Below, piece by piece: positions 38,983-40,351 of a stretch of 64,000 nt of DNA. Source of the DNA: an uncultured Bacilli bacterium. Its GTDB lineage: Bacteria; Bacillota_I; Bacilli_A; RF39; UBA660. Position numbers and translations under genes: made by a program. Below the pieces are notes generated by a model. That model had not been told where the DNA came from. It saw only the letters and a list, made by a program, of their open reading frames with translations, and did not search any database. Location of the stretch: NCBI GenBank assembly GCA_934086185.1, contig CAKOHW010000004.1, forward strand, positions 47,318 to 111,317, read 5' to 3'. The first letter of the stretch is position 1. Every line of letters starts with the position of its first letter.

Positions 38983-39435
38983 TTAAATATTATTTAATAG
39001 ATTATAAAACTTATCTAACATATCTTTCATTTCATTAGGTATAGTATTTAATTTATTTAATGATTTCTTTATATCTAGTATATTTCCTATTAGTACCCTT
39101 AATGTTATTTCTTCATAAGCTGTTTTAATATCATATTTATTTTTATAAGCATTAAATAAATTAGAGTTAGTAGATATTAAGTCTATTGTTCCATTAGTAA
39201 TAAGTAATAGTAATAATAAACTTTTATATTTTTCTATTTCATCATTAGAATTAATATTAAAATTAAAATCTAAATCAAATAATTTATATGTATTTTCTAA
39301 ATAAGGTATTATATATAACTTAACATTTTTATCAGTATTCTCAATATTAATACTATTTGTTAAATAGTCTTGTTCTAAATTATGTTGTTTAATAAAATCA
39401 TCACATAATAAATCTAATATATTTTGTTTTCTCAT
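38983..39435 (-). CDS. Hypothetical protein (150 aa), translationally coupled to the upstream 304-aa gene
   Basis: Start sits 1-2 nt from the stop of 39437-40351; no recognisable motif. Confidence 0.4.
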   Translation of the reverse strand: MRKQNILDLLCDDFIKQHNLEQDYLTNSINIENTDKNVKLYIIPYLENTYKLFDLDFNFNINSNDEIEKYKSLLLLLLITNGTIDLISTNSNLFNAYKNKYDIKTAYEEITLRVLIGNILDIKKSLNKLNTIPNEMKDMLDKFYNLLNNI

Positions 39436-39436
39436 A

Positions 39437-40351
39437 TTAACTATTCCTTTCGTATAAGTTTTTAAATTGTTCTATAAGTTCTTTAATATTTGAAAATGCT
39501 AAATCAATATTATCATTATCAATTAAATTACTAATATCTTTTAATTTATTAAATACATTTATATAAGTTATATCTTTTACAAAGGAAATATCTTGATTTA
39601 AAAACTCTTTTAAGAAATAATTAAATAAGTTTACAAGGCATTTATCATTGTATATGTAATAATCTACCATTGAATTATTTAAGTCTTTAATTCTATTTAA
39701 AATATCAAATATGAAATATCTTTGCTCCGTATCTTCATTAAGATTAATACCTGTTCTTTTTTCATAGGATATTATAAAATCGTTGTTTAATTGTTCTTGT
39801 TTATCTCTATCAAATAAAGTTGATGATTTTGGATCTAAATTATTTATTATTTTTAAATTAACTTTTTTAGGTAGTTTATCATTTGGCTTTTTAATATATG
39901 GCATATCTTTACTATCAACTAATTTATCAAAATTAAGGTTATCAAGTATATTCATAAAATACTCGGTATCTTTTTCAAGACTTTTAAGATTATATTTAGT
40001 CTTTTTAGTTGTATATAATTCTTTCATCTCATTTAATTCATCAAGTGTATTTTCTAAACTCTCATATATTAAAATACACTCACTATCATAACACTTTTTA
40101 ATCTTGTTTTTATATTTGTTTAAATAAGCATTTATTAAGCGCATTATATTATCTACTTTTTGATTAATAGGTATATAGTTTAAAGAAAATAAGATATTAT
40201 TTAAACTAATATAAGTGTTATATGTTTCAAATATCAATTCATATTGTAAGGGGTAGTCTTTAATTTTTATATTAAAAGCACTTTCAAACTTTTTAATATA
40301 AATAGACTTGTTAAAATATTTCTTATCTAACTTGTTATGATATTTACCCAT
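39437..40351 (-). CDS. Hypothetical protein (304 aa), island cargo
   Basis: Long ORF; no recognisable catalytic motif. Confidence 0.4.
   Translation of the reverse strand: MGKYHNKLDKKYFNKSIYIKKFESAFNIKIKDYPLQYELIFETYNTYISLNNILFSLNYIPINQKVDNIMRLINAYLNKYKNKIKKCYDSECILIYESLENTLDELNEMKELYTTKKTKYNLKSLEKDTEYFMNILDNLNFDKLVDSKDMPYIKKPNDKLPKKVNLKIINNLDPKSSTLFDRDKQEQLNNDFIISYEKRTGINLNEDTEQRYFIFDILNRIKDLNNSMVDYYIYNDKCLVNLFNYFLKEFLNQDISFVKDITYINVFNKLKDISNLIDNDNIDLAFSNIKELIEQFKNLYERNS

Follow-up and report, generated by a model that had tools for sequence, protein, structure and literature searches.

A translationally coupled gene pair as the signature backbone of an apparently undescribed family of small integrative elements from uncultured gut Bacilli

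The stretch of DNA considered here, hereafter the window, comprises 64,000 nucleotides of an uncultured Bacilli bacterium (GTDB lineage Bacteria; Bacillota_I; Bacilli_A; RF39; UBA660; GenBank assembly GCA_934086185.1, contig CAKOHW010000004.1, positions 47,318 to 111,317 of the forward strand) and harbours, between 35924 and 42774 in window numbering, an island which is a 6.84-kb integrative element. This study deals with two adjacent genes of the island, coding for proteins of 304 and 150 amino acids (aa), which an earlier note, made from the letters alone, had described as a translationally coupled pair of unknown function, carried as cargo and possibly belonging to an anti-phage defence system. 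The two genes form the end of an operon of the order 78 aa, 52/69 aa, 304 aa and 150 aa, composed as follows:

40684-40920, minus strand: 78-aa gene, upstream in the pair operon, member of a conserved family
40409-40567/40618, minus strand: 52/69-aa gene, upstream in the pair operon, variable
39437-40351, minus strand: gene of the 304-aa signature protein
38983-39435, minus strand: gene of the 150-aa partner protein
38939-38975, minus strand: intrinsic terminator of the pair operon, directly after the 150-aa gene

Both open reading frames (ORFs) lie where the earlier note had placed them, and the coupling it had proposed is borne out by their junction. In fact, the stop codon TAA of the 304-aa gene (39437-39439) and the start codon ATG of the 150-aa gene (39433-39435) are separated by 1 nt, and the Shine-Dalgarno sequence of the latter (GAAAGGAA) is located inside the final codons of the former, which encode the invariant C-terminus YERNS. 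Given the local base composition, in which a codon is a stop with a probability of 0.09, the chance of open frames as long as 304 and 150 codons is 4e-13 and 7e-7, respectively; moreover, the ratio of non-synonymous to synonymous substitution rates (dN/dS), measured against relatives, lay at 0.10-0.30 in the 304-aa gene and at 0.23-0.53 in the 150-aa gene. Since frames of this length are improbable by chance and the dN/dS values reveal constraint, both ORFs are real genes under purifying selection. A further ORF on the opposite strand (39783-40091) was discarded, its apparent conservation being due only to the overlap with the 304-aa gene.

As the note had anticipated, the pair belongs to no described family and shows no recognisable motifs: neither protein found a match in Pfam, NCBIfam, PHROGs, PADLOC, the sequences of the PDB or the deposited phage and plasmid records, and a scan of every family member at E<=10 still returned no family. 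A Foldseek search against viral structures gave nothing (best E 0.66), and nuclease, NTPase, protease, TIR, HEPN and pore-forming features, transmembrane segments and helix-turn-helix (HTH) motifs were not detected in either protein. The possibility that the two are paralogs was rejected (hhalign probability 0.9%). Modelling by AlphaFold2 (AF2) with family alignments yielded, for the 150-aa protein, a confident all-helical bundle of seven helices (predicted local distance difference test, pLDDT, 88.8; predicted template modelling score, pTM, 0.80) and, for the 304-aa protein, two helical-bundle domains at about residues 1-140 and 182-304 (AF2 pLDDT 79.7). The linker of the latter (144-180) is predicted to be disordered and yet is nearly invariant and Lys-rich (NDKLPKKVNLK), and, ahead of the first domain, the family alignment revealed an invariant basic motif, MGxYHNKLDKKYFxKSxY, in which Tyr18 is invariant family-wide; the isoelectric point is 9.8 for the N-terminal 33 residues and 9.4 for the linker. 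A single His is conserved among the close members of the 304 family, but not in the distant ones. On these models, both proteins are predicted to be all-helical and non-enzymatic, with no catalytic motifs.

The homologs, grouped in about 200 clusters for the 304-aa protein and about 100 for the 150-aa protein, are all unnamed and unannotated, originate from gut metagenomes and metagenome-assembled genomes of uncultured Bacilli (human, roe deer, rabbit, chicken-associated genera), and did not turn out to be common structural or replication proteins of phages. When 1.84 billion representative proteins were searched exhaustively by profile, only 53 relatives of the 304 family were recovered, and the family is therefore narrow. 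The genes of the 304-aa protein and of its partner mostly diverge in step, the 150-aa partner evolving about twice as fast as the 304-aa protein. The size of the partner depends on the lineage, being mostly 128-161 aa, with 254 and 424 aa in two distant lineages (loci of related elements are designated by L and a number; L058 6716-7480 and L034 6407-7681), in which the protein apparently consists of two and three tandem copies, respectively, of one helical module (BLASTP 2e-5 to 1e-3). An N-terminal motif, MxKxN[IV][LM]x[IL]L, is common to all partners, and the sequence likeness is suggestive of a kinship of the 254- and 424-aa partners with the 150-aa family.

The genomic context was compared in about 45 related loci of uncultured gut Bacilli, all of which keep a 304-family gene and a coupled partner, and the pair is thus conserved outside its source genome. 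The same layout was seen in L001-L011, L014-L024, L025-L033, L041-L057 and L058, and in the distant loci (21-27% identity) L012 and L034-L039. It comprises the recombinase genes and, divergently from these, a gene of 75-99 aa, at times a second small gene, the 304-family gene and the coupled partner; beyond the pair, a cI-like repressor gene converges on it, and the series continues with Zn-ribbon membrane genes, a replication module in some elements, an HTH_17 gene and two more genes, one of ~105 aa and one, reversed, of ~76 aa. The pair junction is tight in every lineage, ranging from a 17-nt overlap to a 10-nt gap, and also L012, L034, L037, L039 and L058 (21-27% identity) show the same position and a tight or overlapping junction with the downstream gene. 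By contrast, the remaining modules are exchanged. Some elements carry a tyrosine integrase together with Xis, others a large serine recombinase; the repressor occurs in two types, and each type has a distinct operator palindrome; the number of Zn-ribbon genes varies; and the replication module, made of a 264-aa protein and a DnaB_C/DnaB-like helicase or of a weak RepO-like 175-aa protein, is absent in the window and in about half of the relatives. The slot downstream of the pair holds a Type III restriction-modification (R-M) system in L024 (11770-15539; Mod 217 bits, E=1.4e-64; Res 77 bits, E=1.9e-22) and a 280-aa gene without known family in the L007-type elements (L007 9765-10607). A search through the 264-aa family for the same backbone with another gene in the pair's place found none: L058 and L034 carry 304-family members, and L061 ends before that position. 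Since the pair is kept at the same position while all else is exchanged, and the adjacent slot is variable, the 304-family gene with its coupled partner is the invariant signature backbone of these elements and not cargo, the cargo hotspot adjoining the pair; the earlier description of the pair as island cargo was therefore given up. The elements, small (~6.8-11 kb), integrative and hosted by uncultured gut Bacilli, apparently constitute an undescribed family.

Exchange is also visible at a finer scale. L050 (3798-5720) is a mosaic of four parts, joined at or close to gene boundaries; breakpoints fall within the 304-aa gene and precisely on the 304/150 boundary. Recombinase modules were freely swapped between otherwise near-identical elements (L014-L024, L041-L057), a tyrosine integrase with Xis on one side and a large serine recombinase with an ORF of 30-38 aa on the other. 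A role of the pair as recombination directionality factor was rejected, since near-identical pairs accompany unrelated tyrosine and serine recombinases.

The layout bears on the proposal that the pair is an anti-phage defence, abortive-infection (Abi) or toxin-antitoxin (TA) cassette, protecting the host or the element. A module of two tightly coupled genes, borne by a small integrative element, with a fast second gene (dN/dS up to 0.53) and a partner whose size varies as described, would suit such a function; satellites that interfere with phages have been described (PMC10803314; PMC10085698), and the operon, apparently free of control by the cI-like repressor, could be expressed in the integrated state. 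On the other hand, none of the 5027 models of PADLOC-DB v2 matched either protein at E<=1, the neighbouring HTH protein matching only generic regulator models, and nothing above noise was found among toxin, antitoxin and Abi families; the enzymatic, pore-forming and transmembrane features searched for in the two proteins, listed above, are missing as well. Moreover, the pair behaves as a fixed backbone over very deep divergence, while the defence genes of mobile elements usually belong to the variable cargo, and the recognisable defence cargo, the Type III R-M system of L024, sits in a separate slot beside it. The defence-system check proposed in the earlier note, carried out with PADLOC, thus turned out negative, and we regard a defence cassette as quite unlikely. 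Rather, it is likely that the pair is a backbone module for the element's own life cycle and not host-protective cargo.

The pair operon is preceded by a conserved control region, with the following parts:

40921-41066, minus strand: conserved control region, ~140 bp
41033-41057, within the control region: invariant block TTATTTCGGACAAAAATAAGTAAAA
40975-40983: -10 box TAGTATGAT, TATGAT, often extended TGnTATGAT
40945-40968: leader inverted repeat of 7 bp, ACAAAGC..GTTTTGT around a GTCGAC centre

The alignment showed that this region is conserved in all element types, and the identity of the control block, 78-93%, exceeds that of the genes, 66-77% (89% vs 73% in L001, 93% vs 74% in L021, and 84% vs 69% in L024). 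In 18 further metagenome loci the block was always followed by the pair operon, where the contig was long enough. The leader inverted repeat covaries, 91.7% of the cells being paired, a value reached in 0 of 500 shuffles, with three pairs changed on both sides. At its centre each lineage has a GC-rich 6-bp palindrome of its own (GTCGAC, GGTACC, GTGCAC, GGGCCC, TTGCAA, CCGG, others), which is unusual given DNA of ~20% GC. The leader palindrome may serve as an operator bound by a protein, may fold in the RNA as a hairpin with a kissing loop, or may act as a signal in single-strand DNA. A promoter consensus scan, which returned 53 sites vs 59.5 expected, was uninformative in DNA of 20% GC. Control of the pair operon by the cI-like repressor was considered and discarded, because the half-site spacing of the leader palindrome differs from that of the repressor's operator, and because this palindrome is unchanged in L001-type elements, which have another repressor and operator. 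The pair operon has a dedicated control region, divergently shared with the excision and integration genes.

Such a region could in principle be the target of the pair itself. In a regulatory module, controlling transcription of the element or of a helper, the 150-aa protein would be a sigma-2-like factor, though a very divergent one, and the 304-aa protein its partner or anti-factor; or else one of the two would act as an autoregulator binding the leader palindrome. This would be in keeping with the conserved block and the palindromic leader upstream, whose divergence in distant elements parallels that of the 304 family. A weak lead towards a sigma-factor fold was tested and dropped; Sigma70 matched 0 of 21 family members even at E<=10, and the Sigma70_r2 and r4 domains of the extracytoplasmic function (ECF)/sigma-70 factors were not found by profile; together with the negative Foldseek search and the lack of an HTH in both proteins, this makes a regulatory module very unlikely. 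The same leader can be looked at as an oriT-like site, in which case an unconventional relaxase, or accessory proteins of a relaxosome, would be the operon's products and would use a conjugative helper. In fact, the inverted repeat, with its compensatory changes and GC-rich palindromic centre, lies between the -10 box and the first gene, by the recombinase genes, and such repeats resemble the oriT-promoter overlaps of small mobilisable plasmids; Tyr18 of the N-terminal motif is invariant, and L003 abuts a relaxase-bearing transposon. Nevertheless, no HUH, Rep_trans, MOBV or tyrosine-recombinase-like fold or motif was recognised, the sole conserved His of the close family is not kept in the distant members, and the optional modules of the relatives are of phage type (the cI-like repressor and the DnaB-like helicase matching phage PHROGs), so that a mobilisation module is hardly probable at all.

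The ends of the element are marked by the two halves of a host tRNA gene, and an intact tRNA gene lies inside:

35893-35932, plus strand: attL, left end of the element, 5' half of the split host tRNA-Arg(CCT), ending in the 9-bp core CCTCCTAAG (35924-35932)
35988-36064, plus strand: intact element-borne tRNA-Arg(CCT), which replaces the disrupted host gene (ARAGORN, Rfam)
36168-36276, plus strand: cluster of WTGGCACY repeats, left arm, putative integrase arm-type sites
42616-42657, plus strand: GGCAC repeats, right arm, putative integrase arm-type sites
42766-42812, plus strand: attR, 9-bp core CCTCCTAAG (42766-42774) and 3' half of the split host tRNA-Arg(CCT)

ARAGORN calls no tRNA at either the attL or the attR junction alone, and the left half joined to 42766-42812 at the common core gives a perfect tRNA-Arg(CCT): the element split the host tRNA-Arg(CCT) in the anticodon loop without rebuilding it. 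A tRNA-Arg(UCU) might cover the AGG codons. The element tRNA shows 0 mismatches between elements in different hosts, the halves of the split host tRNA differ by 1-4 mismatches, and an identical integrase was found in at least 6 different chromosomal contexts, with different flanking genes. An identical integrase and an identical element tRNA amid different flanks and diverged host halves point, at the level of sequence, to recent movement of the element between different hosts, always into the same site. Nine matches to WTGGCACY occur in the whole window, five of them within ~350 bp of the element ends (1.9 expected by chance; nine reached in 0 of 100 shuffles), and the GGCAC/WTGGCACY repeats at both ends are probably integrase arm-type binding sites. 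The small tRNA-targeting island on which the earlier note had placed the pair was confirmed, with a span of 35924-42774; the Zn-ribbon gene, which the note had associated with the pair, belongs instead to a separate operon. The other parts of the element are:

36333-36563, plus strand: 76-aa backbone gene, same position kept in relatives
36606-36935, minus strand: 109-aa backbone gene (synteny)
36925-37101, minus strand: 58-aa HTH_17 (AlpA/Xis-like) backbone gene (Pfam HTH_17 E=2.9e-5, at 24.7 bits under Pfam's 27-bit cut-off; PHROG DNA-binding family E=6.5e-8; synteny)
37102-37561: non-coding gap of 460 bp in the slot of the relatives' replication genes
37562-38179, minus strand: Zn-ribbon membrane protein, 205 aa (Pfam Zn_Ribbon_1), first gene of an operon divergent from the repressor
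38210-38231: palindromic operator-like site CACAAACCACTCCTATTTGTTG in the interval from the repressor gene to the Zn-ribbon gene; an extended -10 box overlaps with it
38282-38554, plus strand: cI-like HTH_3/HTH_19 repressor, 90 aa (Pfam HTH_19 4e-11; PHROG transcriptional repressor family); its longest ORF begins at 38264
38555-38982: AT-rich non-coding cargo slot of 428 bp, empty in the window, holding the pair operon's terminator
41199-41396, plus strand: excisionase, HTH_17 (Pfam 5e-10), divergent from the pair operon
41484-42614, plus strand: tyrosine integrase (Pfam Phage_integrase 7e-33), divergent from the pair operon

The palindrome at 38210-38231 is kept in the L007-type elements, whose repressor is 99% identical, and is replaced by a different palindrome at the equivalent position in the L001-type elements, with a repressor 45% identical. 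The Zn-ribbon protein, suggested in the note as a helper of the pair, does not appear to play this part: besides its location in another operon, it has only the N-terminal zinc ribbon in common with its relatives, and distant elements carry other membrane proteins. None of the tested genes of the window element matched structural, terminase, relaxase or defence families.

The non-coding regions of the element are of interest for a further explanation, in which the pair is a replication module, the 304-aa protein being the initiator and the 150-aa protein an accessory, acting on 38555-38982 or 37102-37561, and the DnaB-like and 264-aa proteins being optional extras. About half of the related elements, including that of the window, have no recognisable replication gene, and any initiator must therefore be a universally conserved protein, the pair being the largest of these. 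The cargo slot directly after the pair contains, at 38779-38853, 27-bp tandem repeats of 2-8% GC, resembling a DNA-unwinding element, and the AT-rich region is retained in L007-type and several other relatives; the gap at 37102-37561 contains the iteron-like GGGCTAAAARTGTC twice (37300, 37321) and an 18-bp repeat 2.2 times (37373-37412); the basic N-terminal 33 residues and linker of the 304-aa protein would also fit. However, the AT-rich region is absent or reduced to 19-138 bp in L001, L018, L021 and L022, and is therefore not a universal partner site or origin; its conservation matches that of the flanking genes, and the relatives with replication genes (slot at L001 11421-12491 and L021 13304-13998) have their own iterons elsewhere, upstream of these genes (ACAAAATTAC, 2.8 copies). 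Replication thus seems an unlikely function for the pair.

The reason why the pair is retained so strictly could lie in the way the element spreads. We propose that the 304-aa and 150-aa proteins would form a non-enzymatic complex, made together with the excision functions, which would serve the element's own propagation, possibly as an adaptor or scaffold exploiting a helper, probably a phage, for packaging or transfer. Exploitation of a helper is favoured because capsid, terminase, relaxase and coupling-protein genes are lacking and half of the relatives have no replication genes, and yet the element spread recently between hosts; the optional modules, as said, are of phage type. The hijacking proteins of known satellites, such as P4 Sid and Psu and SaPI (Staphylococcus aureus pathogenicity island) Cpm, are family-specific and non-enzymatic, and P4 Sid and Psu are all-helical. 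By this analogy, a satellite-like element whose pair acts as adaptor or scaffold on a helper is a real, if tentative, possibility. The more specific reading is somewhat more doubtful, namely that the pair would be the helper-hijacking device of an unrecognised family of phage satellites or 'hitchers', widespread in uncultured gut Bacilli, with an architecture unrelated to known capsid-remodelling, packaging-redirection or mobilisation factors and controlled by a conserved promoter and a leader with lineage-specific palindromes.

Several observations weigh against a helper-exploiting pair. No direct sign of a helper, of packaging or of transfer was seen; the pair proteins, the DNA of the control block and the replication module were all not found among the IMG/VR viral contigs, deposited phages sharing only the tRNA at the DNA level, and the attP junction of an excised circle (GCAAGTCCCCTCCTAAGTAAGTGGC) had no match in the JGI metagenomes. 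Known scaffolds, capsid-remodelling proteins and terminase subunits showed no structural likeness to the pair. The physical 304/150 complex is suggested only by translational coupling, and in L050 a 94%-identical 304-aa gene stands beside a 52%-identical partner, from which it follows that tight co-adaptation is not required. Finally, since the control region of the pair operon is unlinked to the cI-like repressor, the pair could be constitutive in the integrated state, which would fit maintenance or defence equally. An inovirus- or plectrovirus-like prophage was also considered and rejected, as there is no morphogenesis ATPase, P-loop protein or Rep.

Some further observations concern the neighbourhood of these elements. 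In serine-recombinase elements, the end away from the recombinase often lies directly next to a serine recombinase belonging to another mobile element (L003 13029-15801, the right ends of L004/L005, L006 9455-12293, L007 16447-16915, L021 17050-17685); of the neighbours at those ends, one bears an Apyc1-like anti-Pycsar gene and a holin (prophage-like), and another is a transposon with TnpV and relaxase. The abutting recombinases suggest tandem accretion or shared target sites. In L058 a serine-recombinase relative apparently lies within an NMT1-family gene, split into pieces of 173 aa (2531-3052) and 177 aa (13703-14236), and this insertion disrupts a protein-coding gene, unlike the tRNA-targeting type. 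In the window, an apparent remnant of a second related element is found just to the right of attR (42869-44117). Its 86-aa HTH gene (42869-43129, minus strand) shares 82% identity with the repressor of L001-type elements, whose operator palindrome recurs at 43195-43214, and genes of 57 and 194 aa without family match come next. Further to the left, at 30596-32432, the GC skew reverses locally around a tRNA-Leu(CAA) (31535-31621) flanked by 271-aa (30596-31411, minus strand) and 217-aa (31779-32432, plus strand) genes without PADLOC match; this could be another small insertion.

For many islands no route of transfer is known, and the discovery of new satellite families continues (PMC10085698, PMC11389934). 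The pair is the prime candidate for the factor by which a 6.8-kb element passes from cell to cell despite having no transfer genes, and the distinction between backbone and cargo slot is useful for mining such islands for defence systems. For now the impact is limited, the hosts being uncultured and the function inferential.

The way in which the island sits in its target closely resembles the tRNA-dependent lysogeny of actinobacteriophages (PMC10865867), in which there are likewise a tyrosine integrase, an attB within a tRNA gene, a core of only ~10 bp, and an element tRNA of the same isotype next to attP, the host tRNA not being rebuilt. A split tRNA with a short core and an element tRNA inside are both present in the island, whose carrier is, instead, a 6.8-kb Bacilli element without virion genes and not a temperate phage of Actinobacteria; the parallel concerns the island and not the gene pair, and holds for the sequences alone.

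As regards the element as a whole, the phage-inducible chromosomal islands (PICI), including the SaPIs, as defined in PMC10085698, are likewise small and encode an integrase, an HTH_17 protein (excisionase or AlpA-like) and a repressor of the cI/Stl type divergent from an operon; the relatives described here carry a replication module of phage type, capsid, tail and lysis genes are lacking in both, and the conserved non-enzymatic block sits where hijacking genes would be expected. Of the PICI components, the window element has the integrase and a regulation module (two HTH_17 genes and the cI-like HTH_3 repressor). A primase-replicase was not found in it, the relatives have a helicase or a RepO-like protein but no primase, and a capsid-morphogenesis gene and/or a small terminase were not found. 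The element differs, moreover, in being smaller, at 6.8 kb, in having a tyrosine or a serine recombinase, and in the 304/150 pair, which has no PICI counterpart. As to induction and packaging by a helper phage, a search of IMG/VR gave nothing, the hosts being uncultured bacteria. In the satellite P4, the sid-delta-psu operon likewise encodes, as a conserved unit, mid-sized non-enzymatic proteins acting on the helper capsid, a feature of P4. The likeness to P4 would not go beyond the class of the proteins and their role in the genome: the sequences are dissimilar, structural similarity was not detectable, homologs of Delta, alpha and Ash are missing, and the host is an uncultured Gram-positive. 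Of the P4-like set (PMC10085698) only the integrase and an AlpA-type HTH were found, Psu, Delta, Sid, Ash/epsilon and alpha being absent in PHROGs/Pfam searches.

The phage-inducible chromosomal minimalist islands (PICMI) of Vibrionaceae (PMC10803314) are comparable in their size of ~6 kb, their integrase and AlpA-like regulator, the family-specific ORFans by the core genes, and the lack of capsid-remodelling genes. The PICMI core, though, consists of int, alpA and prim next to fis, whereas no primase was found here, and the target is the anticodon loop of tRNA-Arg(CCT), or others for the serine relatives, in another host phylum. Two-gene TA/Abi cassettes share with our pair the coupling, the location on a mobile element and a fast second gene; the pair differs from them in having no family match, in its predicted large helical bundles without toxin-like domains and in its deep conservation as backbone. 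Current tools would miss the element family, because the core genes that they seek are absent, and the 304-family module is the best handle to detect it. What is new, apparently, is an element family with a signature protein pair without known relatives or fold analogs.

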